Made by a program: the position numbers and the translations under genes. This document shows, one piece after another, positions 6,726 to 39,000 of a DNA stretch of 64,000 nucleotides. Source of the DNA: Eubacteriales bacterium (GTDB lineage: Bacteria; Bacillota; Clostridia; Oscillospirales; Butyricicoccaceae); NCBI GenBank assembly GCA_030523305.1, contig JAUNIY010000002.1, forward strand, positions 2 through 64,001, written 5' to 3'. Each line of letters opens with the position of its first letter. The first letter of the stretch is position 1. The notes beneath the pieces were generated by a model. It was not told the DNA's origin and did not search any database. It saw only the letters and a list, made by a program, of their open reading frames with translations.

Positions 6726-6745
6726 TTTATATATTTATATTATTC

Positions 6746-18874: not shown

Positions 18875-18879
18875 TTTCG

Positions 18880-21979: not shown

Positions 21980-22049
21980 TCAATCAACCCTTTCCTATAC
22001 ACGCTGATGTAACCTCTTATGATAAATCTAGTTAACACAGAATGTCCGT

Positions 22050-23024
22050 TTATCCCAGCGGCGCCCACAGCGCAAGCAGTATCCGCAGGCCGCACAGTGC
22101 AACCACCGCCACAGCGGAAGCCCAATACATCAGCCGGTTTGTGCGCACGATGTCCTCTGGTACAATCGGCCTCGTGTCATCGCCCAACGTCGGTTTTGGG
22201 TACAGCTTTCCAAAATAGTAAGCATCCCCCGCCAGCTGGACGCCCAGAGCCCCCGCACAGGCCGATTCCGTTTGCGCAGAATTGGGGCTGGCGTGTCGCA
22301 ATCGATCCCGCCGGAAGCATTTCCACGCGCCGCAGGCGCTCAGCCCCGCGGGTTTCGCACACAAAACAAACAGCAATCCGCTCAGCCGCGCCGGGATAAA
22401 ATTCCAGACGTCGTCCATTTTGGCGGAAAACCGTCCGAAATACAAAAATGTATCATTTTTATAGCCCACCATAGAATCCAGCGTGTTCACCGCTTTGTAA
22501 GCGAATCCCAACGGCGCGCCGCCGAGCAGCAAAAAGCACAACGGCGCAATGACACCGTCGCTGGTATTTTCCGCAACCGTTTCCACAGCGGCTTTTGTCA
22601 CCTGCGCTTCATCGAGCTGCGCCGTGTCGCGCCCGACAATCCACGAAACATAGTTGCGGGCCAGCTGCAAATCCCCCGCCTGAAGCGCATGGTACACGCG
22701 CAACGCCGCAATTTTCAACGACTTCGCGGCAAAAATCTGCCAGCAGAATATGGTTTCCAGCGCAAAGCGCACCGCCGGATGCAGCAAACCGGCAACCCAT
22801 AGCAGGGCAAACGGAAGCAAGCCGGATGGAATCACGACCAAAAACCACAGCCATACGCCTGCCCAGAATTGCCCGCGATCGGAATCCGGGAACCATTTGC
22901 GCAGCCGCTTTTGCCAAAAGGAAATCATCGCGCCAATGCCCATTACCGGATGCCACAGCCGTTCCGGATCGCCAAGGATGCAATCGATCAAAAATCCCAG
23001 AGCTACCGCCGCTACCATGCGCAT
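22050..23024 (-). CDS. cbiB: Adenosylcobinamide-phosphate synthase
   Basis: GDPERLWHPV, IVGRDT, ETVAENTSDG, YKAVNTLDSMVGY, SPNS; RBS AAGGAGG. Confidence 0.95.
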   Translation of the reverse strand: MRMVAAVALGFLIDCILGDPERLWHPVMGIGAMISFWQKRLRKWFPDSDRGQFWAGVWLWFLVVIPSGLLPFALLWVAGLLHPAVRFALETIFCWQIFAAKSLKIAALRVYHALQAGDLQLARNYVSWIVGRDTAQLDEAQVTKAAVETVAENTSDGVIAPLCFLLLGGAPLGFAYKAVNTLDSMVGYKNDTFLYFGRFSAKMDDVWNFIPARLSGLLFVLCAKPAGLSACGAWKCFRRDRLRHASPNSAQTESACAGALGVQLAGDAYYFGKLYPKPTLGDDTRPIVPEDIVRTNRLMYWASAVAVVALCGLRILLALWAPLG

Positions 23025-23344
23025 GTTTCCTCCTTGATACACTGCGGAATACCGCAGCATACGCGGTATACGCGATCCGCCCGCGCTGCAAGGTCGCAGC
23101 ACAGCCGCCCGGTGTGTTCGCGCCAATCGCGTTCCATCGCATCCATCGGCACCACACCGCAGCCCAATTCATTGCACACGACAGTTTTGCCCAAAAATTC
23201 CTCCGCCTTTGGTATCGGCCTTCCCTCCTGCATCGCTGCCTTGACGATGGCATGTAAATTGTCCACAATTTCGGTTTGCGGCGATATCGTTTTTGCAAAG
23301 GCAGTCTTACCCTGCGCCGCACCGCCAACGATCAATATGGTCAT
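23012..23344 (-). CDS. Short (110 aa) CobU/CobP paralogue
   Basis: GGAAQGKT P-loop plus VCNELGCGVVP...ADRVYRVCCGIP; central RIxxHxxxR segment absent. Confidence 0.85.
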   Translation of the reverse strand: MTILIVGGAAQGKTAFAKTISPQTEIVDNLHAIVKAAMQEGRPIPKAEEFLGKTVVCNELGCGVVPMDAMERDWREHTGRLCCDLAARADRVYRVCCGIPQCIKEETCAW

Positions 23345-23366
23345 TTTTCGTTCCTCTCGATCCGCA

Positions 23367-24146
23367 TCAGCGCATACACAAGCCGCAAACGACAGCCGCA
23401 AGCAGCGCAAGCGTTTCCATCATCGTAATACACATACCGCACAAATCCCCGGTAATCCCACCGAATTGCCTATAGCACAAGCGGACATGGTACACAAAGT
23501 ACAGCAGAAGCAGCACAAACACCGCAAGGCCGAAGCCTTTTCCCAAGAACAGCAGCCAGCAGACACTGGCGGCAATCCAGCCCGCCATCACATAGGATAC
23601 CTGCTTTTTGTCCGTGTTGTCCGCAAACATACGCGCCAGCCCGGAATCCTTTGCACACTTCTGCGTCACAATCAGATCGCCGCCAAAGGCGCGCGCCAAC
23701 GCATACCCCGCAAACAGGAATCCGGCAAACTGCGGCGTATCATACAGCTGTGCAAACAAGCCAAACTGCGCCAGCAGCAACACAACCATCCAGAGGATAC
23801 CGAAGGCGCCGACGTGTGGGTCCTTCAAAATTTCCAGCTTTTTTTCCGTTTCGCTGTATGAACACAGCGCGTCACAGCTATCGACAAAGCCGTCCACGTG
23901 AATCCCGCCCGTGATGGCAACTGGGAGCAACACCGCACCTGCCGCATACAGCATGGTATGCAACTCCCAATGCTGTGCCAGCAACAGCCAGCCATATTCG
24001 CACGCACCGACCAGCACGCCAATCAGAGGCAGAAAGCCCAGCGCATAGCGCATGGTATGCTTTTTCCATTCCACCTGTGGCAACGGCAATGCGGAATACA
24101 TTCCAAATGCGACGAGCAAGCCGCTGAAACAATCGCGCAATATCAT
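23367..24146 (-). CDS. cobS: Adenosylcobinamide-GDP ribazoletransferase (cobalamin synthase)
   Basis: TGGIHVDGFVDSCDA, ILKDPHVGAFG, FGGITGDLCG; multiple TM helices. Confidence 0.95.
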   Translation of the reverse strand: MILRDCFSGLLVAFGMYSALPLPQVEWKKHTMRYALGFLPLIGVLVGACEYGWLLLAQHWELHTMLYAAGAVLLPVAITGGIHVDGFVDSCDALCSYSETEKKLEILKDPHVGAFGILWMVVLLLAQFGLFAQLYDTPQFAGFLFAGYALARAFGGDLIVTQKCAKDSGLARMFADNTDKKQVSYVMAGWIAASVCWLLFLGKGFGLAVFVLLLLYFVYHVRLCYRQFGGITGDLCGMCITMMETLALLAAVVCGLCMR

Positions 24147-24673
24147 TCTATCGTCCCTTTTCTCATCACTGCAATGCCAAAAACGCTTTCCACCACGCAA
24201 TCCGCCCGCTGTGCCAATTGCTGATTGAGCACGCCGAGCGCATGCAGGTACCGCATGGTCCATGCATCGTAGGTCGCGCCGTCCGTGAAGATATCGTTTG
24301 TCACGACGACAACATGCGGGCAAGCTGCACACAGCCGGTCGATACCAGCCAGGATGCTTTGCTCCCATCCGTCCCCTGCGCCCTCGGGCGAAAACATTTC
24401 ATTTGCCAGTGCATTGCCCATGCATTCAAATAACGCTCCTGCATAGCCCGCCGGGACTGCCATCCGGTCAAACCGTTTGGCGTGTTCGAGCGTGGTAAAG
24501 CCCTTTCCGGCGCGCAGCGCACGATGACGCGCGATGCGTCGGCGCGCTTCCTCTCCATCCGGTTCCATTGCCGCGACGTATAGCATCGGCTTTCCATCCG
24601 CCAGCCGGCAGAGGATGGTTTCTGCCAGCTCGGATTTTCCGCTGGCAGCGCCGCCGGTTATCAAGACCAGCAT
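24143..24673 (-). CDS. cobU: Adenosylcobinamide kinase/guanylyltransferase
   Basis: ITGGAASGKS, RRIARHRALR, ECMGNALANE. Confidence 0.92.
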   Translation of the reverse strand: MLVLITGGAASGKSELAETILCRLADGKPMLYVAAMEPDGEEARRRIARHRALRAGKGFTTLEHAKRFDRMAVPAGYAGALFECMGNALANEMFSPEGAGDGWEQSILAGIDRLCAACPHVVVVTNDIFTDGATYDAWTMRYLHALGVLNQQLAQRADCVVESVFGIAVMRKGTIE

Positions 24674-24676
24674 GGC

Positions 24677-25735
24677 TCAGGACAGCGGCTGATACGCTTC
24701 GATGTTGCTGTCCTCGAAGGTATTGCCATTGCAGTACAACGCTGCCGCCGCGTCCAGCATCCCAAACATCAGCACCGCGCCGGTCCCCTCTCCGAGCGCC
24801 ATATGCGCGTCGATCAGCGGCTTGATGTCCAACGCCTGTTCCAGCAGCATCCCCGCCGGTTCCGCTGCATGGTGGGACGGGATCAGGTAATCCCGCACGG
24901 TCGGGCACAGACGCGCGGCGCACAACGCCCCTGCCGCCGAAATGACGCCGTCCACAATGACCGGTAAACCGCAGGCCGCACAGCCCAAAAACAACCCGGT
25001 CAGGCCGCACAGGTCGAATCCGCCAACCTTGGTCAACACATCGACCGGGTCGTGCTGATCCGGCTGCATCCGTTCCAATGCATCGGTAATGACCTGTATT
25101 TTCCGTTCCAATCCCGCTGTCGTTAGGCCGGAGCCTCTTCCGGTCACAAGCTCGATCGGCGCGCGCAGCAACGCCGCCACCACAGCGGAGGCCGTCGTTG
25201 TGTTACCGATACCCATTTCGCCGGTTGCAATGATATCATAGCCCTGCGCCCGGCACAGATACGCGGTTTCGATCCCGACTTCTATGGCGTGCAACGCCTG
25301 TTCCCGCGTCATCGCCGGCTCGTTTGCGATATTTTTCGTGCCATAGGCAATCTTGCGCCGCAGGATATGCTCGCCCGTCACCTCGCTCGCCACACCGATA
25401 TCCACCGGCAGGACATCCGCACCGGCGGCACGCGCCATATGGCACACGGTGGACGTACCCTTCGACAGGTTTTCCGTGATGATCTTTGTGACGTCCTGCC
25501 CGGTCTGGGAAACGCCTTCTGCCACAACCCCGTTATCCGCACACAGAATCACCACGCATTTGCGGCGCAGATCAATCGCCGGGGAACGGCGGATGCCTGC
25601 AATGCGGATCAGGAGCTTTTCCAGATCGCCCAAGCCATTCAGCGGCTTGGCAAGCGAATCCCAATGTACCTTTGCCCGCGCCATGGATTCATAATCCAGC
25701 GGCAAGATATCCTGTATCGTTTGTTCCAGCGTCAT
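24677..25735 (-). CDS. cobT: Nicotinate-nucleotide-dimethylbenzimidazole phosphoribosyltransferase
   Basis: LAKPLNGLG, ADNGVVAEGVS, GEMGIGNTT, GRGSGL, MALGEGTGA. Confidence 0.96.
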   Translation of the reverse strand: MTLEQTIQDILPLDYESMARAKVHWDSLAKPLNGLGDLEKLLIRIAGIRRSPAIDLRRKCVVILCADNGVVAEGVSQTGQDVTKIITENLSKGTSTVCHMARAAGADVLPVDIGVASEVTGEHILRRKIAYGTKNIANEPAMTREQALHAIEVGIETAYLCRAQGYDIIATGEMGIGNTTTASAVVAALLRAPIELVTGRGSGLTTAGLERKIQVITDALERMQPDQHDPVDVLTKVGGFDLCGLTGLFLGCAACGLPVIVDGVISAAGALCAARLCPTVRDYLIPSHHAAEPAGMLLEQALDIKPLIDAHMALGEGTGAVLMFGMLDAAAALYCNGNTFEDSNIEAYQPLS

Positions 25736-27123
25736 GTTGTTTCCTCCTGGAATATGTCATGATATGTGTGTTCTGCCTGCGTCTGACAGTACATGCGGCA
25801 GGCGGACAAAAACCGCTGCGCCGCAAGGAGATTGCCCGCAAAGTGGATATGCGGATATCCTGCGTGCAGCGTCTGCGTCGCATGGACGCAGTCCCAACCA
25901 CGGTTGCGCAGCGGCTTTTGTGCATAAAAGTCTGTCCCCGGCTGCGTGCTTTGTACATAATGAAATTCATGCGCAGTCAATGATTCCCCCGCCCGGCACA
26001 GCAGCGAATCGCGTTTCGCCGTCATCGTGATATAGCCAAATTGCCGCAGCCGTGTCCCCAGCTCTGCTGTACCGCCGCAGACGCCTGCCATGTGTTCTCC
26101 TTCCAGCACGTCGTGCAGCAGCAAAAAGCCGCCGCATTCCGCAATCGTGGGAAGCCCACGCTGTATGGCCGCCCGTATCTCGGCCAGTATCGGTGTACGT
26201 TCACTGAGCTGCTTCGCATACAGCTCCGGATAACCGCCGCACAGCAGCAGGCCGTCGATCTGCTGTGGTAAACACGTGTCATACAATGGCGAAAACGACA
26301 CAAGCCGCGCGCCCATGCGTTCAAGCGTTTCCAGGCTATCCGCATAGTCAAAACAAAACGCCTCGTCGCGCGCCACAGCAATGCGCAGCCCTGCGCCGCA
26401 CAGCGGGACCTCCGGCAATGCGGCGGGAAGATCCGGTGCACGCTGCGCCAGCGCAAGCAGACCGGAAAGATCCATTCCTTCTCTCGCGTGCTGCGCCAAA
26501 AGATGCATTTTTTGCTGTAAGCCGCTGATTTCACTCGCTGTCACCAGCCCCAGATGGCGGCTTTCCACCGCACAGGCCGCATCACGCGGCAGCGCGCCAT
26601 ATACGTGCAATCCTGTATTCCGCTCAACGATACCGGCGTAATACTCCGTCATCGAGGCGGAAACGCCGTTTAGTATCACACCCTGTATTGTGTTTTCGCC
26701 AAACGACAGCAGCCCCTTGAGCACTGCCGCCAGCGTCAGCGACATCCCTTTTGCAGACACTACCAAAACAGATGGCGACTGTGTGAGATTCGCAATATCC
26801 GCCGTGGAGTTTTCGCTCGACGTACCGGCAAGCCCGTCATAGTAGCCCATGACGCCCTCAATGACCGAGATATCCTGCCCTGCGCTGTGCGCCAGCAACG
26901 CTGGAACCGTTTCCCTGCTGCACAAAAACGTGTCCAGATTGCGCGAACGCGCGCCGATCACCCTGCTGTGAAACATCGGGTCGATGTAATCCGGCCCGCA
27001 CTTGAAGGCCGCCGTATCCAGCCCTTGCTCCACAAAGGCTTGCAGCAGCGCGCAGGTTACAGTCGTTTTTCCGCATCCACTCCCCGTCCCGCCGATGACC
27101 AGGCGCGGCGCACGGACGTTCAC
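25732..27123 (-). CDS. cbiA: Cobyrinate a,c-diamide synthase
   Basis: GTG start (RBS GGAGG); GSGCGKTT, FKCGPDYIDP, IEGVMGYYDG, GGYPEL, AECGG, HEFHY. Confidence 0.96.
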   Translation of the reverse strand: MNVRAPRLVIGGTGSGCGKTTVTCALLQAFVEQGLDTAAFKCGPDYIDPMFHSRVIGARSRNLDTFLCSRETVPALLAHSAGQDISVIEGVMGYYDGLAGTSSENSTADIANLTQSPSVLVVSAKGMSLTLAAVLKGLLSFGENTIQGVILNGVSASMTEYYAGIVERNTGLHVYGALPRDAACAVESRHLGLVTASEISGLQQKMHLLAQHAREGMDLSGLLALAQRAPDLPAALPEVPLCGAGLRIAVARDEAFCFDYADSLETLERMGARLVSFSPLYDTCLPQQIDGLLLCGGYPELYAKQLSERTPILAEIRAAIQRGLPTIAECGGFLLLHDVLEGEHMAGVCGGTAELGTRLRQFGYITMTAKRDSLLCRAGESLTAHEFHYVQSTQPGTDFYAQKPLRNRGWDCVHATQTLHAGYPHIHFAGNLLAAQRFLSACRMYCQTQAEHTYHDIFQEETT

Positions 27124-28304
27124 AGGTTGCCTCCGATCAGGTACACCGGATTTTGCGCCATCATCATATGATAGCCGCCTACCTGCTTTGCTCTGGAAAC
27201 ATTGATACAGGAAATTTCCACAGCAAAGCCGTTGTCCTCCAGCGCCGCAGCGGCTGCATGTACAGTTTCCAGCGCAATCGCCGTTGCCACAATACGCACA
27301 GACGGATTCCTTTCGCGCACAGCAGCTATAATCTGTGCCATATTCCCACGGCTGCCGCCGATCAAGACACAATCGGGCGCAGGAAGCTGTTCCAGCCCAT
27401 CCGGCGCCATCGCCTGCACAATGGCAACATTGTAGCATCCCGTATGTACACGGTTGCGTGCGATCAGCTCCACCGCCTCCGGCTTGCATTCCACGGCATA
27501 CACCTGACCACGACATGCGCGGCGCGCCAAATCCATGGAAATCGAACCGGTGCCCGCGCCGATGTCATAGACGGTATCCGTCGGCTTTACCGCAAGCAGG
27601 TCACATGCCAGCCATCGAATCTCCTGCTTGGTCATCGGCACATCCCCGCGGATGAAATCGCTGTCCCGCAAGGGGCGGCTGGTGTCGGCCGACCGATCAT
27701 TTTCCACCATCATCACGCACAAATCGCCAAATGCCTGCCCGGCGAGCTGCTCCGGCGTACCGGATACCAAGCGTTCTGTCGCCGCGCCAAGGTTTTCCCC
27801 TATCGTGACCCGGACATGATTCAGCCCAGCCTCGGCTAAGCGGTTGCACAGCACATGCGCTTTGTTTTGCCCTCCGGTCAGTGCAAGCACCTTTTTGCTG
27901 TAGCTCACGGCGCCCAGCAATGCGCCGGGCCGCCCGTGCAGGCTGAGCAAAACCGCGTCGTCATACGACGTGCCGACCTTGGCGCAAAACACCTGTATAC
28001 TGCCGACACCGGGAATCCATTGTACCGACCCATGCGCCGCCAACGCTACATGCAGTTTTTTCGCCGCGCTGTAAAAGCCGGTGTCGCCGCTGAGCAGGAT
28101 TGCAGTTGTCCCATCCTGCCGCTGCGCCGCATCCGCCAGATGGGCAAATGGAACCGATTGGATATCCTGCCGGATGCTCCGCAGGCCTTCCGCCAGCCGT
28201 GCTGTGGCGAAAACCGTATCCGCCCGATCGATGGCGTCACGCGCCTGTGCGGTCAGCATATCCGCCGTGCCCATCCCGGCGCCAATCAGATACCATTGCT
28301 TCAT
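27120..28304 (-). CDS. cbiET: Cobalt-precorrin-7 C5 / -6B C15 methyltransferase-decarboxylase (CbiE-CbiT fusion)
   Basis: LIGAGMG, LSGDTGFYS, LSLHGR; C-terminal PMTKQEIR, DIGAGTGS, LIGGSRG, QNPV. Confidence 0.93.
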   Translation of the reverse strand: MKQWYLIGAGMGTADMLTAQARDAIDRADTVFATARLAEGLRSIRQDIQSVPFAHLADAAQRQDGTTAILLSGDTGFYSAAKKLHVALAAHGSVQWIPGVGSIQVFCAKVGTSYDDAVLLSLHGRPGALLGAVSYSKKVLALTGGQNKAHVLCNRLAEAGLNHVRVTIGENLGAATERLVSGTPEQLAGQAFGDLCVMMVENDRSADTSRPLRDSDFIRGDVPMTKQEIRWLACDLLAVKPTDTVYDIGAGTGSISMDLARRACRGQVYAVECKPEAVELIARNRVHTGCYNVAIVQAMAPDGLEQLPAPDCVLIGGSRGNMAQIIAAVRERNPSVRIVATAIALETVHAAAAALEDNGFAVEISCINVSRAKQVGGYHMMMAQNPVYLIGGNL

Positions 28305-29596
28305 GCCGTTTGTCCGCTCATCTGCGCCATCACGGCTCTTGCCGCGTCGACAGTGGCCTGTAAATCCTGCTGGGTGTGCGCCGCGCTGACAAACATCGCT
28401 TCAAACTGAGCCGGGGCCAGATAAACATTGTGCTCCAGCATTGCACGGAAATAGGCCGCATATTTTTGCGTATCGCTGGATTTTGCGCCGGTATAGTTGG
28501 TTACCGGTCGATCTGTAAAGAACACGCTGAGCAGCGAACCGATCTGATTGACCGTGCAGCCCACGTGATATTCGTTTTCCAGCTCCCGCAGCTGCTGCGC
28601 CAGCCATGCAGCATTGCGTTCGATCTGCGCATAGATTTCCGGCTGTTCGTTCAGCATGGTCAGCTGTGCCAGGCCCGCCGCCATGGCAACCGGATTGCCG
28701 GACAGCGTACCCGCCTGGTACACCGGGCCAGTGGGCGCCACCTGCTCCATCAGCTTCCGCGGGCCTGCAAATGCACCGACCGGCATACCGCCGCCGATGA
28801 TTTTGCCAAAGGTGACCAAATCTGCGCGCACGCCAAAATATTCCTGCGCACCGCCGCGCGCCAGACGGAAGCCGGTGATCACTTCATCAAAAATCAACAA
28901 CGCTTCATACTGGTCGCACAGCGCGCGCAGCCCCTGCAAAAAGCCCGCTTCCGGCGCGACCACGCCCATATTCGCCGCGACCGGCTCGACAATAACCGCC
29001 GCTACCTCTCCTTTGTTGGCGCAAAGCAGCTGCTCCACGCTTGCCAGATCGTTGTAGGTCGCCGTCAGGGTATGCTGTGCGATGGATGCAGGGACGCCCG
29101 CAGAATCCGGCCTGCCCTGCGTGAGCGCACCGGAACCTGCTTTGACCAGCATGGAATCCGAATGTCCATGATAGCAGCCCGCAAACTTGATGATCTTATC
29201 CTTACCTGTTGCGCCGCGCGCCACGCGTACTGCGCTCATCACAGCTTCCGTACCGGAATTGACCATACGCACCATGTCGATATCCGGTACCATCGAAACC
29301 ACCAATTCTGCCAACTGCGTTTCCCGTCCTGTGGGTGCGCCAAAGCTCAGGCCATCCCACATGCATTCCGCAACGGCAGACAGCACCTGCGGGTGTGCAT
29401 GTCCCAAAATCATCGGCCCCCAGGAACCGACATAATCAATATATTCGACATCATCCACATCGGTGATATACGCGCCCTTTGCGCTGCGGATAAACCGCGG
29501 CGCCACACCGACAGCACGATACGCACGCACCGGACTGTTCACACCGCCCGGCATCACCTCGCACGCCCGTGCAAACATGGTTTCAGAAATGCTCAT
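28301..29596 (-). CDS. hemL: Glutamate-1-semialdehyde 2,1-aminomutase
   Basis: PGGVNSPVRA, NSGTEA, GCYHGH, FDEVITGFR, GKIIGGG, YQAGTLSGNP. Confidence 0.97.
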   Translation of the reverse strand: MSISETMFARACEVMPGGVNSPVRAYRAVGVAPRFIRSAKGAYITDVDDVEYIDYVGSWGPMILGHAHPQVLSAVAECMWDGLSFGAPTGRETQLAELVVSMVPDIDMVRMVNSGTEAVMSAVRVARGATGKDKIIKFAGCYHGHSDSMLVKAGSGALTQGRPDSAGVPASIAQHTLTATYNDLASVEQLLCANKGEVAAVIVEPVAANMGVVAPEAGFLQGLRALCDQYEALLIFDEVITGFRLARGGAQEYFGVRADLVTFGKIIGGGMPVGAFAGPRKLMEQVAPTGPVYQAGTLSGNPVAMAAGLAQLTMLNEQPEIYAQIERNAAWLAQQLRELENEYHVGCTVNQIGSLLSVFFTDRPVTNYTGAKSSDTQKYAAYFRAMLEHNVYLAPAQFEAMFVSAAHTQQDLQATVDAARAVMAQMSGQTA

Positions 29597-30579
29597 TACC
29601 CGATATCCCCTTTCTTCATCGCCTGTGCCAGTTCCTTGGCATAATACGTAATCAGGATATCCGCACCGGCGCGATAAATGCTCAACGCAGATTCGCACAT
29701 AATGCGGTATTCATCCACCAGATCTGCGGCCGCCGCCGCTTTGATCATTGCGTATTCACCGCTGACGGAATACGCCGCGAGCGGCAGATCAAAGCGTTCC
29801 CGCGCTTTGGCAATGATGTCCAGATAACTCAGCGCGGGCTTGACCATGATAATATCCGCGCCTTCCTGGATATCCAGCTCGCATTCCAGCATCGCCTCGC
29901 GGCTATTGTGCGGATCCATCTGATAGGACTTGCGGTCGCCAAAGGATGGCGCGGAGCCTGCCGCATCTCGGAACGGGCCGTAAAAAGCCGAAGCATATTT
30001 TGCAGAATACGCCATAACCGGTACATTGGTAAAGCCGTTTTCATCCAGAATCGCACGGATCGCGCCGACGCGCCCATCCATCATATCGGACGGCGCTACC
30101 ATGTCCGCGCCCGCCTGCGCATGAGACAGTGCAATTTTGGCCAGGTATTCCAATGTCTGGTCGTTGTCAACGTCATGGCCGCACAAAATGCCGCAGTGTC
30201 CATGTGACGTGTATTCGCACATGCAGACGTCGGTGATGACATAAAAATCCGGATAATCCGCTTTGATAGCGCGGATCGCCTGCTGTACAATGCCATCCTC
30301 CGCCCATGCGCCGGAGCCGATTTCATCCTTGTGCGCCGGAAGGCCGAACAGGATGACCTTTTCCACACCGGCCTGGATGCATTCCTCAACCGCTTCGCCG
30401 ATGCGGTCGGGCGACCAGTGGTACTGTCCCGGCAAAGACGGGATTTCACGCTTGATATTTTCACCCGCAATGGCAAACAGCGGATAAATCAGGCTGGATG
30501 GCGACATCCGGGTTTCCCGCATCATGGAACGCAGCGTCGGCGATGTGCGCAGCCTGCGCGGACGGTTTTTGAGATTCAT
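29596..30579 (-). CDS. hemB: Porphobilinogen synthase (Zn-type)
   Basis: RPRRLR, DVCMCEYTSHGHC, APSDMMDG, MVKP, YSVSGEY. Confidence 0.97.
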   Translation of the reverse strand: MNLKNRPRRLRTSPTLRSMMRETRMSPSSLIYPLFAIAGENIKREIPSLPGQYHWSPDRIGEAVEECIQAGVEKVILFGLPAHKDEIGSGAWAEDGIVQQAIRAIKADYPDFYVITDVCMCEYTSHGHCGILCGHDVDNDQTLEYLAKIALSHAQAGADMVAPSDMMDGRVGAIRAILDENGFTNVPVMAYSAKYASAFYGPFRDAAGSAPSFGDRKSYQMDPHNSREAMLECELDIQEGADIIMVKPALSYLDIIAKARERFDLPLAAYSVSGEYAMIKAAAAADLVDEYRIMCESALSIYRAGADILITYYAKELAQAMKKGDIG

Positions 30580-32075
30580 CTATGATATTCCTCCTGTAAT
30601 GTTGTGAGCATTGCTTCAATGGTAGCATGTGCCGCAGTGATGGTACGCATACCGGCGGCTTTTGCCGCTTTTTCTGTGGACGGGCCAATACAAAGTGCCA
30701 AAAAGCCTGTCAGCTCCGTACCCTCCGGCAGGCTGTTGACAAAGCCGTGCACCGTAGATGCACTGGTAAACGTCACGTAATCGATCGCGCCGTCGGCCAG
30801 CAGCTGCGCCATCTCCTCACTGCGCCCGCTGCGGTACAGCGTGCGGTAAACCGGGACATCGTCAAACGATACGCACGCCTGTGCCAGCAGCTCCGGCAAC
30901 TCCGGCGCACCGATTTCCGCGCGCAGCATGAGCACACGCTCGCCTTCCTGCACCAGACGGATCAATCCTTCCGCCAAGTGAGCGGAATCATACACAGCCG
31001 GGATGTAATCCGCGCGCAGTCCGTGCTCTTCCAGCTTTTTGGCAGTCCCGGCGCCGATGACCGCTACCTTCATGTGCGCCAGGCTGCGCATATCCATATC
31101 GGCCGCGCGAAGCAGCTGCACCAGCACTTCCACGCCCGCCGGGCTGGTCAGCACAAGCCAATGGTATTGCTCGATGGCGGCCAACGCCTCGACTACGGGC
31201 ATATTTGGCCAGATGGTTTCGGTTTCAATGCACGGATATGAAATGACATCGGCACCCAGCTCCCGCAAGCGATGGGTCAACGTCCCGGCGCGCTGTCTGG
31301 GACGGGTGACCGCTACGGTCGCGCCATGCAGCGGCAGCTTGTCGTACCAGTCAAAAGCATCGGACAGCGCGCAGACCGCACCGACAATCAACACGGCCGG
31401 GCTGGAAATCCCAGCCTCCTGCATGGCCTGCGCCAGCGTGCCGACCGTCGCCACAACCTTGCACTGGCCCGGCAGCGTGCCGCGTTCTACCATAGCCGCA
31501 GGCATATCCGCAGACATGCCCGCCTGCTGCAAACCCGCCAAAATCATCGGCGCACTGCTGACACCCATCAAAAATACCAGCGTGCCCTTGTGGCGCACCA
31601 GCGCGTCAAAATCAAGATCCAGCTCCCCGCCAGCTTTTGCATGGCCAGTGATGATGTGCACCGAGGAAGCAAACGCCCGGTGCGTCACCGGAATGCCCGC
31701 ATAGGCCGGTACGGCAAGCGCACTGGTCACGCCCGGTATCACGGTAAAATCCACACCATTTTCCGCCAGCAGCTCCAGTTCTTCCCCGCCGCGGCCGAAC
31801 AAAAAGCAATCGCCGCCCTTCAGACGCACAACGCGCTTGCCCTCCTTCGCCTTTTCCAGCAGGATTTCATTGATGCGCCACTGTGGCACCGGATGGTGGC
31901 AGCTCCGTTTGCCGACGTCGATGCATTCCGCCTTGGGCGGCATCAACGCCAGAATTTCCGGCCCGACCAACCGGTCATATACCACAACATCGGCATCCAA
32001 AATGGCTTGCCGCCCCTTCACAGTCAGCAGCCCAGGATCGCCCGGGCCTGCGCCGACCAATGTGACATGTCCCAT
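30576..32075 (-). CDS. cobA/hemD: Fused uroporphyrinogen-III C-methyltransferase / uroporphyrinogen-III synthase
   Basis: VGAGPGDPGLLT, RLKGGD.FLFGRGGEE; C-terminal VTRP, LTSPAGV, FTSASTV, CIGPST. Confidence 0.95.
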   Translation of the reverse strand: MGHVTLVGAGPGDPGLLTVKGRQAILDADVVVYDRLVGPEILALMPPKAECIDVGKRSCHHPVPQWRINEILLEKAKEGKRVVRLKGGDCFLFGRGGEELELLAENGVDFTVIPGVTSALAVPAYAGIPVTHRAFASSVHIITGHAKAGGELDLDFDALVRHKGTLVFLMGVSSAPMILAGLQQAGMSADMPAAMVERGTLPGQCKVVATVGTLAQAMQEAGISSPAVLIVGAVCALSDAFDWYDKLPLHGATVAVTRPRQRAGTLTHRLRELGADVISYPCIETETIWPNMPVVEALAAIEQYHWLVLTSPAGVEVLVQLLRAADMDMRSLAHMKVAVIGAGTAKKLEEHGLRADYIPAVYDSAHLAEGLIRLVQEGERVLMLRAEIGAPELPELLAQACVSFDDVPVYRTLYRSGRSEEMAQLLADGAIDYVTFTSASTVHGFVNSLPEGTELTGFLALCIGPSTEKAAKAAGMRTITAAHATIEAMLTTLQEEYHR

Positions 32076-32076
32076 A

Positions 32077-32961
32077 CTATCCCTCGCTTTTCATTCGCAG
32101 CGCCAGCTCCGCTGCATATGCGGCGGCATCGGCCCGCGGGCAGGTTATGGTTTCGATGCGGGAATGCATCCGGTCTTCTGTGACATACAGACCGGTCAGC
32201 CGGACGGTATCGGCATCCGCCAGCTGCGCAAACGCCGCCACCGGCGACGAGCAGCCGCCATCCAGCGCGCGGATAAACGCACGCTCAGCCAGCGCACAAT
32301 CCCATGCATACGCATCGTGAAATTTTAACAAAATATCGCAATCAAAGCCCTGTCGCGCCTGCACAGCAAGAATGCCCTGGCAGGCGGAAGGGAGGATTTC
32401 TTCCGGTGTAAAAACGTGATGGATGCGCCGTTCTAACCCGAGGCGGCGCAAGCCCGCCTGCGCCAGAATCAATGCACCGTATTCCCCGCTGTCCAGCTTG
32501 CGCAAACGCGTCTGGATATTGCCGCGCACAGGCTTCACCGCAATGCCGGGATACAGCCTTTGTATCTGCACCGTGCGGCGCGCGGAGGCGCAGCCCACCG
32601 GCTTGGTTTGATCCCACTGCGTACAGCCCTCCGGCAGTACCAGCACGTCATACGGCGTTTCCCGCCGGGAAACCGCGACAAGCGGTAACCGTTCGTCCAA
32701 CTGCGTTGGCAAATCCTTCATCGAGTGTACGGTCAGGTCAACGGCTCCGGCCAGCAGCGCGCGATCAAGCTCTTTGACAAACAGCCCTTTGCCGCCGACT
32801 TTGTCCAGCGTCCGATCCAGGATTTTGTCGCCGATCGTTTTCATCGTGACCAACTGCACATCTACATCGGGATTGCAAGCACGGATGGCATCAATGACGA
32901 TTTCACTTTGGATAACCGCCAGCTTGGAATCCCGGCTTCCTACACGGATGGTTCTGCGCAT
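32077..32961 (-). CDS. hemC: Hydroxymethylbilane synthase
   Basis: VGSRDSKLA, KGLFVKEL, VHSMKD, RGNIQTRL, AERAF...GGCSSP. Confidence 0.96.
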   Translation of the reverse strand: MRRTIRVGSRDSKLAVIQSEIVIDAIRACNPDVDVQLVTMKTIGDKILDRTLDKVGGKGLFVKELDRALLAGAVDLTVHSMKDLPTQLDERLPLVAVSRRETPYDVLVLPEGCTQWDQTKPVGCASARRTVQIQRLYPGIAVKPVRGNIQTRLRKLDSGEYGALILAQAGLRRLGLERRIHHVFTPEEILPSACQGILAVQARQGFDCDILLKFHDAYAWDCALAERAFIRALDGGCSSPVAAFAQLADADTVRLTGLYVTEDRMHSRIETITCPRADAAAYAAELALRMKSEG

Positions 32962-34133
32962 CGGTTTTCCTCCTCCCGTAAAACTGCCTCGATGGCGTGC
33001 GCTGTGCGCGCCGTTTTCTTGTGATCGCTGCCATCGGACACCACGCCAACCGACAGCCCCGCACCCGTGCGTACCGCCGGGAAGAAAAAGGTGCATTCGT
33101 CCCGATTGTCCGCCGTGCTGACAAAAATACCGCGCTCCATGCACAGCTCATAAATGCGGTGGTTGATCGCTCTGCAATCGGTTGCGGCCGCGACCAGAAA
33201 GGCCCCGTCCAAATCCCCGGGACAAAATTCCCGTGTCAGACGACGCGCGCCCTGCGGCGTCTCCCCTTCGGGAGCGACCACCGTGACATCCGCGCCATAC
33301 CGCAGCAAAACCGCAGCCCGATGCGCACCGATGTTCCCGCAGCCGACCACCAGACACCGTTTCCCGGTCAAATCGACAAACAACGGAAAACGCGGAGGTG
33401 CCTCAGAAAGCAGCAGATCGCGCACCGCCTCCGGCGTCATGCCATCCTCCTGCGGGCGATCTATCAGGATTACCGTGCAGCCGCACGCCTTTGCCGCCGC
33501 CAGCTTTTCCGGCAAACCGCCCGCCGTGCCGGTGTCCTTTGTCACCAGCCATTGCGCGCCGCAGGTATGCAGCAGCGCGGTATTGAGTTCCTGTGAAAAC
33601 GGCCCCTGCATCATGATGATATGCGCCGCTGGAAAGCCAAGCTGCTTGCAAATATCGAGCGAAGCCGCCGCAGGCAACACCCTGGGCCACAGCCGCTGCG
33701 CATAATCCGGCACCGCAGTAAAGCAATGCAGCTCCTTGCTGCCGACAGTCAACAGCACGGCGCCCTGCGTTCCCGCCAGGTATTCCGCCGCCTCCGATGC
33801 GCTTCCGACGCGGACAACGCCCTCCGCCTGCGTCCTGGGGCGCAGCAGCCGGATGTATCGGCAGCCTGCCGCCTGGCACGCCTGCCGGATGTTTTGGCTC
33901 ACCTCCACAGCATATGGATGCGTGGCATCGACAGCCAACGCCGCCCCCTGCAAAAAGTCCGTCATCTGCTGCGCCGTCATGCGCCCGGTGTGCACCGTAA
34001 TGCCCGGCATTTCCGTCAGGACGGCTTTGCCGTATTCCGTGGCCACGCACACCGTTGCGCACAGACCAGCCTGCGACAACTGCTCACACAGCGTCCTTCC
34101 TTCACTTGTTCCAGCAAAAATAATCCGCTTCAT
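32940..34133 (-). CDS. cbiJ: Cobalt-precorrin-6A reductase fused to a SirC/Met8/CysG-N-like precorrin-2 dehydrogenase domain
   Basis: N-terminal FAGTSEG, DATHPYA, GPFSQELN, TKDTG; C-terminal (approx 32940-33395) FPLFVDLTGKRCLVVGCGNIG, AATD, ADNRDECTFFFPA. Confidence 0.9.
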   Translation of the reverse strand: MKRIIFAGTSEGRTLCEQLSQAGLCATVCVATEYGKAVLTEMPGITVHTGRMTAQQMTDFLQGAALAVDATHPYAVEVSQNIRQACQAAGCRYIRLLRPRTQAEGVVRVGSASEAAEYLAGTQGAVLLTVGSKELHCFTAVPDYAQRLWPRVLPAAASLDICKQLGFPAAHIIMMQGPFSQELNTALLHTCGAQWLVTKDTGTAGGLPEKLAAAKACGCTVILIDRPQEDGMTPEAVRDLLLSEAPPRFPLFVDLTGKRCLVVGCGNIGAHRAAVLLRYGADVTVVAPEGETPQGARRLTREFCPGDLDGAFLVAAATDCRAINHRIYELCMERGIFVSTADNRDECTFFFPAVRTGAGLSVGVVSDGSDHKKTARTAHAIEAVLREEENRCAEPSV

Positions 34134-34858
34134 TTGTTTTCATACCCTCTCGGCGTGACGAGTTTACCATGGATCACCCTGGTCTGGCTGTTGCCGATGA
34201 ATACCGTTGTGAACATATCCACGTTGGTATCACGCAGCTGTGCCAGCGTACAAACGGCATGCTGCTCGCCGTCCCGTCCGATGTTGCGCACAGTACCGCA
34301 CGGCGTATCCGCCGCTTTGCTCTTGAGCAGGATGTCACATGCCTTTTGCAGATAATCCGCACGCTTGCGGCTGGATGGGTTGTACAGGCAGATGCAAAAA
34401 TCCGCCTGCGCCGCCAAATCCAGACGCTTTGCAATCGTCTCCCACGGCGTCAGCAGGTCGCTCAGGCTGATGACCGCAAAATCATGCATCAGCGGCGCAC
34501 CCAGCACCGCCGCGCCGCCGCACGCCGCCGTAATCCCCGGGATGACTTCGATTTCCAATTCCGGATACGCGGCGCACACCTCATGCATCAGCCCCGCCAT
34601 ACCATACACCCCGGCATCGCCGGAACAGACCATCGCAACCGTCTTTCCGCGCAGCGCGGCGTCGCGCGCCTGTACGCAGCGGTCAATTTCCTGCCGCATC
34701 GGCGTCTGTAATATTTCCTTATCGCCGATGTAATCGCGTACCAGATCCATATATACGGTGTAGCCCGCGACAATATCACTTTTTCGTATGGCATCCAGCG
34801 CGCGCGGCGTCATCTGATCCGCGCCGCCCGGCCCAATGCCAATGACATACAGCTTCAT
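34130..34858 (-). CDS. cbiH: Cobalt-precorrin-3 C17-methyltransferase
   Basis: LYVIGIGPG, SGDAGVYGMA, PLMHDFAVISLSD, LYNPSS, TPRGY. Confidence 0.96.
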   Translation of the reverse strand: MKLYVIGIGPGGADQMTPRALDAIRKSDIVAGYTVYMDLVRDYIGDKEILQTPMRQEIDRCVQARDAALRGKTVAMVCSGDAGVYGMAGLMHEVCAAYPELEIEVIPGITAACGGAAVLGAPLMHDFAVISLSDLLTPWETIAKRLDLAAQADFCICLYNPSSRKRADYLQKACDILLKSKAADTPCGTVRNIGRDGEQHAVCTLAQLRDTNVDMFTTVFIGNSQTRVIHGKLVTPRGYENK

Positions 34859-36090
34859 GTCGTCCTCCTGTCCCGCAGCTGCGGCGCTTTGCGCAGCATG
34901 GTTTCCCGGCAAGTGCGTAGCGCATGGTCGGACAACTCCCCCTGTAAGCTGCTGAGCAGCAACCGCGCGGTTTTTTCCGCCGCCAACCGCGCCGCCTGCT
35001 CCATCTTGTCCGCTGTCTGTTCGTCTTCCCCCGCCGACAGCACGGCAAGGTCATAGCCGGTTGCAATGCGTTCGCTGGCAAGCCGCCCCAGCTCATCCAT
35101 CAGCGGCAGCGCTTTTCGATATGCCTTCCAGCGCAGCAGCTCCGCCATTTCCTCATCAATGATGTCGTGTACCTGCTTGCAGCTGTCCACATCGACCTGC
35201 GCATCACGCCCGCCCATGCTGTCCATATCCAGGAAAACCTGTACGCCGGGCAGGTGGCGGATCGCCGGGTCAATGTCACGCGGGATCGACAGGTCACAAA
35301 CCGCATCAGGCACGCGCGCAAGCGTCTCCATGCTCTCCCGCGTGACGGTATAATGTGGGCTTGTGGTCGCGCTGAGCAAAATATCGCACTGCGGCACGGC
35401 CGTCATGCGTTCGTCATATGCAATGGTCCCACAGCCCGCCGGGACAACCGTCTGCCCACGCCGGTAAGAGCGCAGCGTCACAGTAACCTGACAGCCTGCC
35501 GCCACCAAAAGGCTGGAAGCAAGCCGCCCCATCTCACCATTGCCAATGACCAATGCACGCTTTCCTCTAACATCCCCTATCGTATCTTTGAGCAGCGCAA
35601 CCGCCTGTCCTGCAACCGAAAGCGGCGCTGCGGAAAGCCGTACCTGTGTGCGGCTGCGCTTGCCTGCGGTCGCCGCCAGACGAAACAGCTGGCTGAGCAC
35701 GGCGTCGGTTGTCCCGGCTTCATGCGCGATCTGGTACGCGCGTTTGACCTGCGACACAATTTGATCTTCCCCTAAAATCTGCGAACACAGACCGCACGCA
35801 ACCTCCATCAGATGCCGCTCCGCTTCCTCCGCCGTGCGTTCGGAAAACAGATGCTCCGCGCCCGCTTCCCCTGCCGCCCGGCACAGGATTTCAGCCGGCT
35901 TGCATGCGCCGTTTCCACTGAGATAGATTTCCGTCCGGTTGCAGGTTGACAGCAGCACGCAGCCATCGACACCCGCAACATCGGCAATCTGACGGCACAT
36001 CCGTTCTACCTGGCTGTTTGTGAACGAAAATGCTTCCCGCTTGTCCATATTCGCATGTTCCCAGTCGATTCCAGCCATGCAAATGCTCAA
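34855..36090 (-). CDS. hemA: Glutamyl-tRNA reductase
   Basis: TTG start overlapping the cbiG stop; LSTCNRTE, GEDQIVSQ, IGNGEMG, DLSIPRDI. Confidence 0.94.
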   Translation of the reverse strand: MSICMAGIDWEHANMDKREAFSFTNSQVERMCRQIADVAGVDGCVLLSTCNRTEIYLSGNGACKPAEILCRAAGEAGAEHLFSERTAEEAERHLMEVACGLCSQILGEDQIVSQVKRAYQIAHEAGTTDAVLSQLFRLAATAGKRSRTQVRLSAAPLSVAGQAVALLKDTIGDVRGKRALVIGNGEMGRLASSLLVAAGCQVTVTLRSYRRGQTVVPAGCGTIAYDERMTAVPQCDILLSATTSPHYTVTRESMETLARVPDAVCDLSIPRDIDPAIRHLPGVQVFLDMDSMGGRDAQVDVDSCKQVHDIIDEEMAELLRWKAYRKALPLMDELGRLASERIATGYDLAVLSAGEDEQTADKMEQAARLAAEKTARLLLSSLQGELSDHALRTCRETMLRKAPQLRDRRTT

Positions 36091-37103
36091 AATACAATCC
36101 TCCAATCCTCGCAATACAACGATATGGTCATACCGTCTTGCGCCGTTTTCTGTAGCAGGCAGCGTCCGCCTCGGGACGCCTTTGCCGCCGCACGCTGGCA
36201 TACATTGTCTGTCCCGGTGACCCGCCGTACAAATTCCGACGGCGAGAAATCCCCTTGTACCTGTTCCAGCTCCTGTGCGGTATAAAACTGCACCGGTACA
36301 TGCCATGCTTGCGCCAAGCGGCACACCGCCGCCTCATCCCGCTTCAAATCAATCGAGGCCACAGAAGCCACAGCGCGTATATCGATCTTCTCACGCTCCA
36401 ACACCTGCCGCGCCCAGCGCGCAAGCGCGTCCGGCGGTGTATTTCGCTTGCACCCTAAGCCCACATGTACAATGCGCGGCGTCAGATACAGCGTATGCGC
36501 AAATGGGCCGTCGTCGCGGCGATCCATCGAAATCTCCACACCATATGTCAGCGAAAGATCCGTGGCTATGCCGTCCGGCAACGCGCCCGAAACCGGGAAA
36601 GTGCTGTGCAAACCCACCTGTTCCCCACGCAGCAGCGCGCCGGAAATGTCCTTGATGGCATTGATATTGCGCACGACACAGTTGTGTTCGGCTGCCCAGC
36701 TGTCCACAGCAAAGATCCCGCGACCATCGGTTGCCGTCGTGATGACCGGAACAGCGCCCAGCGCCAAAGCAAGCCGCTGCACCAAACGGTTTGCGCCGCC
36801 GATATGCCCGGACAGCAGCGAAATGACAAACCGTCCGTTTTCATCGATGACGAGAACCGCGGGGTCGGTGTCCTTGCTCTGCACAAACGGCGCGATGGCC
36901 CGCACCGCAATACCAGTCGCGCCGACAAACACAATGGCATCTGCATGTCCCATCGCATATTGTGCAAAGCTTCGGACGGTTTCATACCTCTGGAATCCCG
37001 CCGCTTTTGCATATAATTGTACCTGTTCTTCCGGCAATTGCGCGGCAATGCTCCTGCTCAGCGCACGCCCGCGGTCTGTGAACGCGATGACATCGATATT
37101 CAT
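36087..37103 (-). CDS. cbiG: Cobalt-precorrin-5A hydrolase
   Basis: ATGIAVRAIAP, KDTDPAVLV, SGHIGGAN, VITTATD, GLGCKR. Confidence 0.95.
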   Translation of the reverse strand: MNIDVIAFTDRGRALSRSIAAQLPEEQVQLYAKAAGFQRYETVRSFAQYAMGHADAIVFVGATGIAVRAIAPFVQSKDTDPAVLVIDENGRFVISLLSGHIGGANRLVQRLALALGAVPVITTATDGRGIFAVDSWAAEHNCVVRNINAIKDISGALLRGEQVGLHSTFPVSGALPDGIATDLSLTYGVEISMDRRDDGPFAHTLYLTPRIVHVGLGCKRNTPPDALARWARQVLEREKIDIRAVASVASIDLKRDEAAVCRLAQAWHVPVQFYTAQELEQVQGDFSPSEFVRRVTGTDNVCQRAAAKASRGGRCLLQKTAQDGMTISLYCEDWRIVF

Positions 37104-37855
37104 GTATCCGCCTCGCGGCATCCATGCGCAAACGACGGGTCATACAGCTTGGACCGTTCATATTGCCCGCCCAAAAAACCGCCGACGGTAATCAATGCCG
37201 TCTGACGGATACCGTTTTCCTGCGCCGTTTGCTCCAATCCCGCAATCGTCGTGCGGAACACCTTTTCCTCCGGCCAGGTCGCCTTATACACAATCGCTGC
37301 GGGCGTTTCCGGCGCATAGCCGCCCGCGATCAGCTCTTCGGCCAGCTTGCCAAGCATCCCGGCAGACAGGAACAGCACCATTGTACTGCCATGTGCCGCC
37401 AGTGCGCGGATGGATTCGCGTTCCGGCACCGGCGTGCGGCCCGCCATTCGGCTCAAAATGACAGTCTGGCTGACATCCGGCAACGTATATTCCGCCCGCA
37501 ACGCTGCCGCCGCGCCGCAAAAGGAGGAAACCCCAGGGCATACGTCATACGTGACGCCATGCGCTTCCAGTATATCCATCTGTTCGCGGATGGCACCGTA
37601 AATCGACGGATCGCCGGTGTGCAGACGCACAACCTCCTTACCAGCCCGCGCCGCCGGGAGCATTACCTCCATGACCTGCTCCAATGACATGGACGCGCTG
37701 TTATACACGGCGCATCCAGCTTTTGTACGTGTCAAATGCGCCGGATTGACCAGAGAACCGGCGTATACAACAACATCCGCTTGCTCCAGCAGCTTCGCGC
37801 CGCGAATCGTAATCAAATCCTCCGCTCCCGGGCCTGCCCCAACAAAATGAATCAT
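37100..37855 (-). CDS. cbiF: Cobalt-precorrin-4 C11-methyltransferase
   Basis: FVGAGPG, YAGSLV, RLHTGDPSIYGA, SQTVIL, SKLYDPSF. Confidence 0.96.
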   Translation of the reverse strand: MIHFVGAGPGAEDLITIRGAKLLEQADVVVYAGSLVNPAHLTRTKAGCAVYNSASMSLEQVMEVMLPAARAGKEVVRLHTGDPSIYGAIREQMDILEAHGVTYDVCPGVSSFCGAAAALRAEYTLPDVSQTVILSRMAGRTPVPERESIRALAAHGSTMVLFLSAGMLGKLAEELIAGGYAPETPAAIVYKATWPEEKVFRTTIAGLEQTAQENGIRQTALITVGGFLGGQYERSKLYDPSFAHGCREADT

Positions 37856-37857
37856 TG

Positions 37858-39000
37858 CTATTCCTCCTCCCGCAGCGCCGCAATGCAGGCAGCTGCCTGT
37901 TCCGTCTGCATCATGACGCCATATTGATTGGTAAAAACCACATAATCCACAGAAAATGGCTTACCGGATTTCCCGGATGTCCGCCGCGTCAGATGCGACA
38001 GCAGTTTGTCTGCAATTGAATCGAGTACGGGCTTGTCCAGCCCCGCTTGCTGCAAAATTTCCAAGCAGGCATCCACCGTAACCGCCTGCATTAGCCTGCG
38101 CACGGTTTCGGTATCCGCGCCGCACAGCGCGGCGTGCGCGGCGAAAATCTCCTGACGTGCATCCGCATAGGCAGAATGCGTCTGAAAAACGCCGGCCGCC
38201 AGCTTAATCAGCTTGCCCGCATGTCCAATCAGCAAAACGCCGTCAAACCCACAGTAAACCGCATAATCCAACGCTTCCCCGATAAAATTGGAGCATTTGA
38301 CGCCTTTTGCAAGATCCAAACCAAAGGTTTCCTTTGCAAAGTCCGCGCCGTAATTGCCCGGACACAGCAACACAATACGCTGTCCGGCAGCACGGCGCGC
38401 ATCCAGCTCGACATGGATGGTATCAATCAGCGCCTGCTCGCTCATCGGCTCGACAATGCCGCTGGTTCCAAGCACAGACAGGCCCCCCACGATGCCCAAA
38501 TGCGGGTTAAACGTGCGCGCGGCCAGCGCTTCACCACCGGGAATGGAAATCATAACCGAAAAGCCGCCGGAATACCCATACTGCTGCGCCACTTCGCGCA
38601 GAGCGCATGTGATCTGCTCGCGCGGCGCAGGATTGATCGCCGCTGTGCCGACCGGCTGCGCCAGCCCCGGACGCGTCACCCGCCCGACCCCTTCGCCGCC
38701 ATCAATCACAATCCCAGTGTCGATGCGCCGCACCGTGGCATACACCAGCACATGATGGGTAATGTCCGGGTCATCCCCGGCGTCCTTGCGCACCGCACAG
38801 CGCACCGCCTCACGTGTGCGCGTCATATCTTCCACATCCAACGTCAGGCCGATGCCCTTCGGCGTCATCAGCCGTACCTGCCGCACAGGTTTGCCGCACA
38901 ACAAGGCAACAGCGGCCGCCTTCGCCGCAGCCGCTGCACAACTGCCGGTCGTGTAGCCCAAAGCAAGCTGTTTCCTGTTTTTTACCACATACCGGTCCAT
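37858..39000 (-). CDS. cbiD: Cobalt-precorrin-5B C1-methyltransferase
   Basis: GYTTGSCAAAA, KDAGDDPD, AINPAPR, TFNPHLGIVGGLSVLGTSGIVEPMS. Confidence 0.97.
   Translation of the reverse strand: MDRYVVKNRKQLALGYTTGSCAAAAAKAAAVALLCGKPVRQVRLMTPKGIGLTLDVEDMTRTREAVRCAVRKDAGDDPDITHHVLVYATVRRIDTGIVIDGGEGVGRVTRPGLAQPVGTAAINPAPREQITCALREVAQQYGYSGGFSVMISIPGGEALAARTFNPHLGIVGGLSVLGTSGIVEPMSEQALIDTIHVELDARRAAGQRIVLLCPGNYGADFAKETFGLDLAKGVKCSNFIGEALDYAVYCGFDGVLLIGHAGKLIKLAAGVFQTHSAYADARQEIFAAHAALCGADTETVRRLMQAVTVDACLEILQQAGLDKPVLDSIADKLLSHLTRRTSGKSGKPFSVDYVVFTNQYGVMMQTEQAAACIAALREEE

Follow-up and report, generated by a model that had tools for sequence, protein, structure and literature searches.

Why would a bacterium join two enzymes of cobalamin (vitamin B12) synthesis in a single protein, and could that protein stand in for a cobaltochelatase that the surrounding operon does not encode? 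Both questions are raised by the cbiJ-sirC gene of a Eubacteriales bacterium of the family Butyricicoccaceae (assembly GCA_030523305.1, here G000; a draft of 251 contigs and 2.79 Mb, 97% complete). The gene lies on contig JAUNIY010000002.1, within the 64,000-nucleotide stretch of DNA that was analysed as a whole (the window). A preliminary description of this stretch, made from its letters, had proposed that precorrin-6A reductase is fused here to a SirC/Met8-type domain, that an oxidase and a reductase might thereby share redox cofactors, and that the added domain might supply the missing cobalt chelatase. We consider it likely that the gene is a conserved fusion of a cobalt-precorrin-6A reductase with a short-type precorrin-2 dehydrogenase, which arose through the fusion of neighbouring genes. 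The protein is probably not the replacement for the cbiK gene lost from this genome.

Domain content of the cbiJ-sirC gene

The reading frame is uninterrupted over 397 codons and both of its domains were recovered in Pfam and NCBIfam scans, as well as in homologues, which bears out the proposed fusion. The N-terminal part matched the CbiJ family (PF02571, residues 4-237) with E 4e-70 and 236 bits against a cut-off of 28.6, and the precorrin-6A reductase model TIGR00715 with 182 bits against a cut-off of 129.85. Characterised CobK and CbiJ are single-domain proteins of about 250 aa. In a Foldseek search with the predicted structure, this half resembled the CobK fold (5c4n/5c4r/4x7g; E 7e-14, TM(target) 0.74-0.75, 25% identity). 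The likeness to Rhodobacter capsulatus CobK (4X7G/5C4N), in family and in fold, covers the N-terminal 237 residues; the difference is the C-terminal SirC-like domain of 150 residues that is present in this protein.

The C-terminal domain (residues 249-392) carries the motif FVSTADNRDECTFFFP, and its residues 337-351 form the motif FVSTADNRDECTFFF. It matched NAD_binding_7 (PF13241), the Rossmann domain of SirC, CysG-B and Met8p, at residues 251-353 (E 7e-32, 111 bits). The siroheme synthase N-terminal domain model TIGR01470 scored 78.6 bits against a cut-off of 62.3, over profile positions 1-128 of 205 only. TIGR01470 was the only NCBIfam model passed by the short SirC type, for which that collection has no equivalog; the SirC equivalog models were far under their cut-offs (PRK06719, 30 vs 223 bits; PRK06718, 55 vs 204 bits). 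The codons of three residues discussed below, Asp342, Ser366 and His371, were confirmed by translation. Elsewhere in the genome, PF13241 matches were weak (25-36 bits, in frames of 302 and 463 aa), and the fusion is its only SirC candidate.

From these homologies we infer two activities for the protein. The CbiJ domain would convert cobalt-precorrin-6A to cobalt-precorrin-6B with NADH, and the short SirC domain would act as an NAD+-dependent precorrin-2 dehydrogenase that forms sirohydrochlorin from precorrin-2. The substrate of the latter would be supplied by the product of cobA-hemD, two genes downstream.

Conservation and occurrence of the fusion and of the short SirC module

Both domains were found in one protein of ~390-400 aa in the best 120 database homologues (49-83% identity), with one exception, a 652-aa CbiJ-CbiET form (P0069). 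The complete fusion was present in 37 of 81 genomes sampled from the same family, which is Butyricicoccus/Agathobaculum/Intestinibacillus-like by best matches. It also occurred in two other Clostridia families (G102, G193 and G230) among 200 genomes sampled across the class. A sequencing or assembly artefact that joined two genes was rejected, as the single frame is kept in the best 120 homologues (bar that one) and in 40 genomes. Across 119 fused homologues, Asp342 and Ser366 were invariant (119/119 each) and His371 nearly so (118/119); ~20 further positions of the C-terminal domain did not vary either, even in homologues of only 49% identity. Each of these proteins ends near residue 388. By these measures the C-terminal domain is under strong constraint. 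Asp342 is the residue that the preliminary description had aligned with the Asp of Met8p and CysG.

In other genomes, cbiJ was unfused and a short sirC was separate. In G013, cbiJ (258 aa) and a short sirC (154 aa) lie on the same strand with a 14-nt overlap, the arrangement that would be expected of a pre-fusion state, and the fusion probably arose by the joining of adjacent, overlapping cbiJ and sirC genes of this kind. A different partner was observed in two other genera, where cbiJ is fused to cbiET (~675 aa; G004, L066:12613-14550; G070, L067:14930-16836) and not to sirC. No SirC-like gene was detected in G004 and no hem genes were found in the 20-kb cluster examined; this strain may start from an imported intermediate.

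An exhaustive HMMER search with the last 153 residues of the protein returned 2,497 cluster representatives at E <= 1e-10. Among the best 150 of these, the domain formed the C-terminal module of a larger protein in 90, a stand-alone short protein (<=175 aa) in 33, a longer stand-alone protein in 21 and an N-terminal module in six. Pfam scans of examples (P0124-P0157) identified HemA-SirC, HemA-CbiJ-SirC, SirC-HemC and SirC-CobA-HemD fusions, and the stand-alone short form was common as a single-domain protein of 144-170 aa. Asp occupied the 342 position in 129 of 151 sequences (85%; the query and the best 150). His was found at the 371 position in 122 of 126 short forms, and 103/126 had both residues. 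In long stand-alone forms (~210-225 aa), whose length would accommodate a helical domain, the 371 position is Pro, as in CysG. The other fused and stand-alone short forms thus share the architecture and the Asp/His pair of our protein, and only the fusion partner differs. These comparisons argue firmly for short SirC as a conserved subfamily tied to early tetrapyrrole metabolism. That all partners are tetrapyrrole enzymes supports a role as precorrin-2 dehydrogenase, and CbiJ-SirC would be one of several neighbour fusions of a mobile module.

The readiness of the module to fuse with whichever gene lies next to it argues against a special redox coupling between CbiJ and SirC. The proposal that shared cofactors explain the fusion was not supported: the module also occurs on HemA, HemC and CobA-HemD, of which HemC and CobA-HemD use no nicotinamide cofactor, and the predicted structure has a flexible, low-confidence linker and a pTM of 0.66.

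Homologues of the fusion are named only "precorrin-6A reductase" at NCBI, and no description of a CbiJ-SirC or HemA-SirC fusion was found in the searchable literature.

Architecture of the short SirC domain in comparison with known enzymes

An AlphaFold model built with 66 homologues as input (mean pLDDT 91.2) comprised, in its C-terminal part, a Rossmann fold (259-340), a beta hairpin (353-364; strands 353-357 and 360-364) and a helix (371-392). HMMER aligned residues 249-384 to residues 4-146 of Salmonella CysG (1pjq), pairing Asp342 with Asp104, Ser366 with Ser128, His371 with Pro133 and a DNRD loop with the DAPK loop of CysG. The dimerisation element is present, as the hairpin strands and the helix align to CysG 114-146; the chain ends five residues past this helix, and an all-helical domain of the CysG type is not present. 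In the model, then, the domain corresponds to the Rossmann-plus-dimerisation part of CysG-B minus its all-helical domain. Residues 241-250 were of low confidence (pLDDT 66), and the linker is predicted to be flexible, the packing of the two halves against each other being modelled without confidence.

In CysG, two chains contribute to the binding site: the macrocycle is held by the Rossmann fold of the first and the helical domain of the second, lying under Asp104, resting on Pro133 and capped by Pro106 of the DAPK loop (PMC7018833). The D104A variant loses both activities. With P133H, the dehydrogenase is dead and the chelatase about ten times less active; the wild-type enzyme has measurable cobaltochelatase activity (PMC7018833). 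In Bacillus megaterium SirC, Ser takes the place of Asp104; according to the same source, changing it to Asp does not make the enzyme a chelatase. The background given in the preliminary description, namely that the CysG Asp serves both activities, that CysG can use cobalt and that SirC lacks chelatase activity, agrees with this source.

The C-terminal domain resembles each of these enzymes and departs from each. Salmonella CysG-B (1PJQ, 6P5X), a class III dehydrogenase/chelatase, superposed over 147 columns at 1.7 A rmsd with 26-28% identity, and its Asp104 and Ser128 are kept as Asp342 and Ser366. Our protein differs in lacking the all-helical domain and Pro106 (DNRD loop), in having an invariant His at the Pro133 position, and in having no fused SUMT, which in CysG contributes Arg260/Asp262. 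Monofunctional B. megaterium SirC (3DFZ) shares the fold (E 5e-7, 144 columns, rmsd 2.5 A), the expected reaction and the pathway position, whereas it is ~200 aa long with a helical domain and the Ser, and the domain studied here is short and has Asp. Saccharomyces Met8p (1KYQ), a bifunctional dehydrogenase/ferrochelatase, shares the fold (E 6e-8) and the catalytic Asp; it has the full three-domain architecture, whereas our domain stops after the dimerisation helix. On these comparisons, Asp342 would most likely be the general base of the dehydrogenase, and the invariant His371 would form part of a tetrapyrrole pocket that is unlike that of CysG because the helical domain is missing.

Several observations weigh against a cobalt-precorrin-6A reductase fused to a precorrin-2 dehydrogenase. 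Half of the CysG tetrapyrrole pocket, the helical domain, is absent, and His occupies the very position at which the P133H change costs CysG its dehydrogenase activity (PMC7018833); homology is therefore no guarantee of the same activity. A literature search found no assay of any short-type SirC. Finally, G000 and a relative, G042, have no cytoplasmic chelatase and yet keep ~20 pathway genes intact; if their pathway is functional, cobalt has to be inserted by some agent.

The half-missing pocket, the His at the platform position and the low scores for PRK06719 and PRK06718 would also fit a domain that is not a precorrin-2 dehydrogenase at all, but instead an accessory or regulatory module that binds NAD(H), or one acting on another tetrapyrrole intermediate, with precorrin-2 oxidised by other means. 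We regard this as very unlikely. The domain is the only SirC-like gene product in genomes that have an otherwise complete anaerobic pathway and CbiK, an enzyme that needs sirohydrochlorin, and every fusion partner (HemA, HemC, CobA-HemD and CbiJ) belongs to tetrapyrrole metabolism. Of the compared sequences, 85% retain the catalytic Asp, and the Rossmann-plus-dimerisation part of CysG fits closely.

Cobalt chelatases in this genome and in other fusion-bearing genomes

Genome-wide, the sole CbiK-family gene of G000 was found on contig C138 (E 9e-84); no other CbiX (PF01903), ferrochelatase (PF00762) or CobN (PF02514) was found. A typical lipoprotein signal (…MLLSGCGSS…) opens the C138 protein, an acidic linker of 50 residues comes next, and there is no internal Met ahead of the CbiK domain. 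Every residue that 33 cytoplasmic CbiKs share without exception is kept in it, among them the Glu and both catalytic His. The gene is preceded by a cobalamin riboswitch and followed by a second lipoprotein gene. In G004 (L066:1550-7003), a riboswitch is followed by the lipoprotein CbiK, a substrate-binding protein, a FecCD permease and an ABC ATPase, a BtuFCD-like set directly upstream of the cbi genes. Because the same gene heads this importer operon, the C138 CbiK would be an extracytoplasmic component of an uptake system and not a biosynthetic chelatase; it may be a surface chelatase or a corrinoid-binding uptake component. As a pathway chelatase it was rejected as unlikely, given its lipoprotein signal, the riboswitch and the importer operon of G004. 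The preliminary description had held that a separate cbiK would speak against its chelatase proposal; such a gene does exist, but in form only, as it encodes a lipoprotein in a riboswitch-controlled uptake operon. Six genomes, from four genera, had no CbiK other than the lipoprotein, and the searchable literature yielded no paper on a lipoprotein CbiK under riboswitch control.

Sister genomes within the genus encode a further CbiK, ~250 aa long and lacking a signal peptide. In the closest relative, G055, this cytoplasmic cbiK lies between sigE and a convergent sigma-factor gene. On contig C120 of G000 (L048:2464-2518) these two genes are adjacent, ~31 bp replacing 876 bp of G055 (L043:9389-10264), and the flanks are 83-91% identical. 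At relaxed thresholds, no CbiK fragment was detected on any contig. The absence of cbiK at the syntenic locus is therefore real, the C120 flanks being contiguous and no fragment lying elsewhere, and an assembly gap was rejected for this site. The indel would have run in the direction of loss. The absence of cbiK reported in the preliminary description thus extends from the window to the genome, which has no usable cytoplasmic copy. In G079 and G065, cbiK lies beside the same sigma gene with unrelated DNA on its other side, and the site appears variable. A further observation concerns iron: contig C69 (L047:251-1279, +) encodes an AsrC-like protein with NIR_SIR, NIR_SIR_ferr and 4Fe-4S dicluster domains. 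Its presence implies, on domain content, a need for sirohaem and hence for a sirohydrochlorin ferrochelatase, and no recognisable one was found in this genome either.

The loss was not confined to G000. In G042 (99% complete, 20 contigs) the operon ends at cbiC, with no detectable cbiK remnant; its only CbiK is the lipoprotein, and it has no CbiX. Comparison of the two genomes suggests that cbiK was lost independently in each. In both, hemA-L, cobA-hemD, short sirC, cbiL and all later genes are intact (about 20 ORFs), with no recognisable cytoplasmic cobaltochelatase.

It is possible, if less likely than not, that the chelatase gap is only apparent: a cbiK or cbiX could lie in the unassembled ~3% or vary between strains, or the pathway could be blocked at cobalt insertion while corrinoids are imported. 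The state of the draft would allow for this, the cbiK locus is an indel hot-spot with flanks that differ among G055, G079 and G065, and the riboswitch-controlled uptake operon with its lipoprotein CbiK is present. Against it stand the contiguous syntenic site on C120, the lack of CbiK fragments, the same state in the better-assembled G042 and the ~20 biosynthetic ORFs that remain intact in both genomes.

Across fusion-bearing genomes, a cytoplasmic CbiK or small CbiX was encoded in 37 of 40, as a rule within the cluster of the fusion itself. Within the family, 34/37 had a non-lipoprotein CbiK, an assignment for which N-termini were read in 25 and inferred from open frames of <=275 aa in the rest. 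The gene was typically ~15 kb downstream, at the end of the operon (…cobO-cbiC-cbiK in G071). In the three fusion genomes of other families, CbiK or a small CbiX was encoded ~5 kb from the fusion. The exceptions were G000, G042 and the fragmented G077, in which no cytoplasmic chelatase was found. Asp342 and His371 were invariant irrespective of chelatase content, G000 having no substitutions of its own among the 119 homologues. Four genomes with an unfused cbiJ (G004, G070, G041 and G062) had only the lipoprotein CbiK; the cytoplasmic enzyme can thus be lost whether or not the two genes are fused. The survey proposed in the preliminary description hence returned no mutual exclusion of fusion and cbiK, and gene content indicates that the fusion does not replace CbiK in general. 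In most fusion-bearing organisms, cobalt would be inserted by the separate cytoplasmic CbiK or small CbiX.

These counts bear directly on the proposal that the short SirC is a class-III-like bifunctional dehydrogenase/chelatase that inserts both cobalt and iron, making CbiK dispensable in the way that CysG does in Salmonella cbiK mutants. A more specific form would have a minimal enzyme of the short His type, with Asp342 above and His371 below the macrocycle, insert Co or Fe slowly without a helical domain. If so, slow insertion would suffice for B12 and sirohaem and would explain the independent losses of cbiK in G000 and G042. Asp342 does align with CysG D104, which is essential for chelation, and the invariant His371 lies where the centre of the macrocycle rests in CysG. 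Cytoplasmic cbiK was lost in both genomes with the other pathway genes all intact, CbiX, HemH and CobN were not found in the G000 genome, and the AsrC-like protein calls for an iron chelatase as well. However, 37/40 fusion-bearing genomes retain CbiK or small CbiX, and the two residues are just as invariant where CbiK is present. Short SirC has no helical domain, no DAPK loop and no Pro133 platform, introducing the Asp into B. megaterium SirC gave no chelatase (PMC7018833), and genomes with an unfused cbiJ also lack cytoplasmic CbiK. We therefore do not favour the domain as the chelatase of the pathway: the general proposal is unlikely, and its minimal-enzyme form equally so. Non-enzymatic insertion is a further possibility for the cobalt step in G000 and G042.

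Operon setting

The fusion gene lies within an operon of the order cbiD-F-G-hemA-cbiH-cbiJ/sirC-hemC-cobA/hemD-hemB-hemL-cbiET-cbiA-cobT-cobS-cbiB-cobD-cbiP-cobO-cbiC (Table 1). Starts and stops overlap at the cbiH/fusion and fusion/hemC junctions, and the three genes are therefore expected to be translationally coupled. Pfam scans of the window identified no cbiK or cbiX, and cbiL was likewise not in the operon. In G000, cbiL is alone on contig C182 (L007:1468-2175, -), between FAD oxidoreductase and SNF-family symporter genes; in relatives, G042 among them, the gene is flanked by cbiD and cbiF. An Rfam search of the window gave a single match, a T-box leader (6476-6730, -), and no cobalamin riboswitch, whether ahead of the 20-gene cbi/hem operon or elsewhere.

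Table 1 Location of the fusion gene, its domains and key residues, its neighbours, and the lipoprotein CbiK locus. Coordinates refer to the window unless a contig is given.
Feature	Residues	Coordinates	Strand	Basis or remark
cbiJ-sirC fusion gene		32940..34133	-	Single 397-aa ORF, ATG start; ORF list, Pfam, NCBIfam
CbiJ/CobK domain (predicted cobalt-precorrin-6A reductase)	4-237	33423..34124	-	PF02571, TIGR00715, Foldseek
Interdomain linker RDLLLSEAPPR	238-248 (11 aa)	33390..33422	-	Low-pLDDT block, variable alignment columns
Short SirC/CysG-B-like NAD domain	249-392	32958..33389	-	PF13241, TIGR01470, CysG alignment, model, Foldseek
GCGNIG dinucleotide-binding motif	264-269	33327..33344	-	Translation; G264 and G266 invariant in 119 homologues
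Asp342 codon (CysG Asp104 equivalent)	342	33108..33110	-	HMMER alignment to 1pjq, translation
His371 codon (CysG Pro133 platform position)	371	33021..33023	-	Alignment, translation
cbiH		34130..34858	-	Directly upstream; stop overlaps fusion start as ATGA; PF00590
hemC		32077..32961	-	Directly downstream; ATG 19 nt before fusion stop; PF01379/PF03900
cobA-hemD fusion (makes precorrin-2, the SirC substrate)		30576..32075	-	PF00590 and PF02602
Whole hem/cbi/cob operon		18236..39000	-	Pfam scans
Lipoprotein CbiK gene		Contig C138, L049:769-1776	-	
Cobalamin riboswitch preceding lipoprotein CbiK		L049:1966-2178	-	102 bits
Second (partner) lipoprotein gene, after lipoprotein CbiK		L049:3-695	-	

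Implications for cobalamin and sirohaem synthesis

Predicting B12 producers in the gut from genomes depends on recognising every step of the pathway. The fused architecture is common in sequence databases, and annotation of its SirC half falls short: with the protein recorded as a precorrin-6A reductase only, precorrin-2 dehydrogenation goes unnoticed in many Clostridia. Short SirC is a structural variant, so far uncharacterised, of an enzyme that has been studied in depth: it has no helical domain and carries His where CysG has the Pro platform. What completes its tetrapyrrole pocket is the question that follows. Two or more pathways that are complete in all but a cytoplasmic cobaltochelatase offer a concrete test case for cobalt insertion by a SirC-type enzyme or by other means. 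A separate lead, perhaps of greater interest, is the surface CbiK under riboswitch control, which may point to the scavenging of corrinoids or metal.

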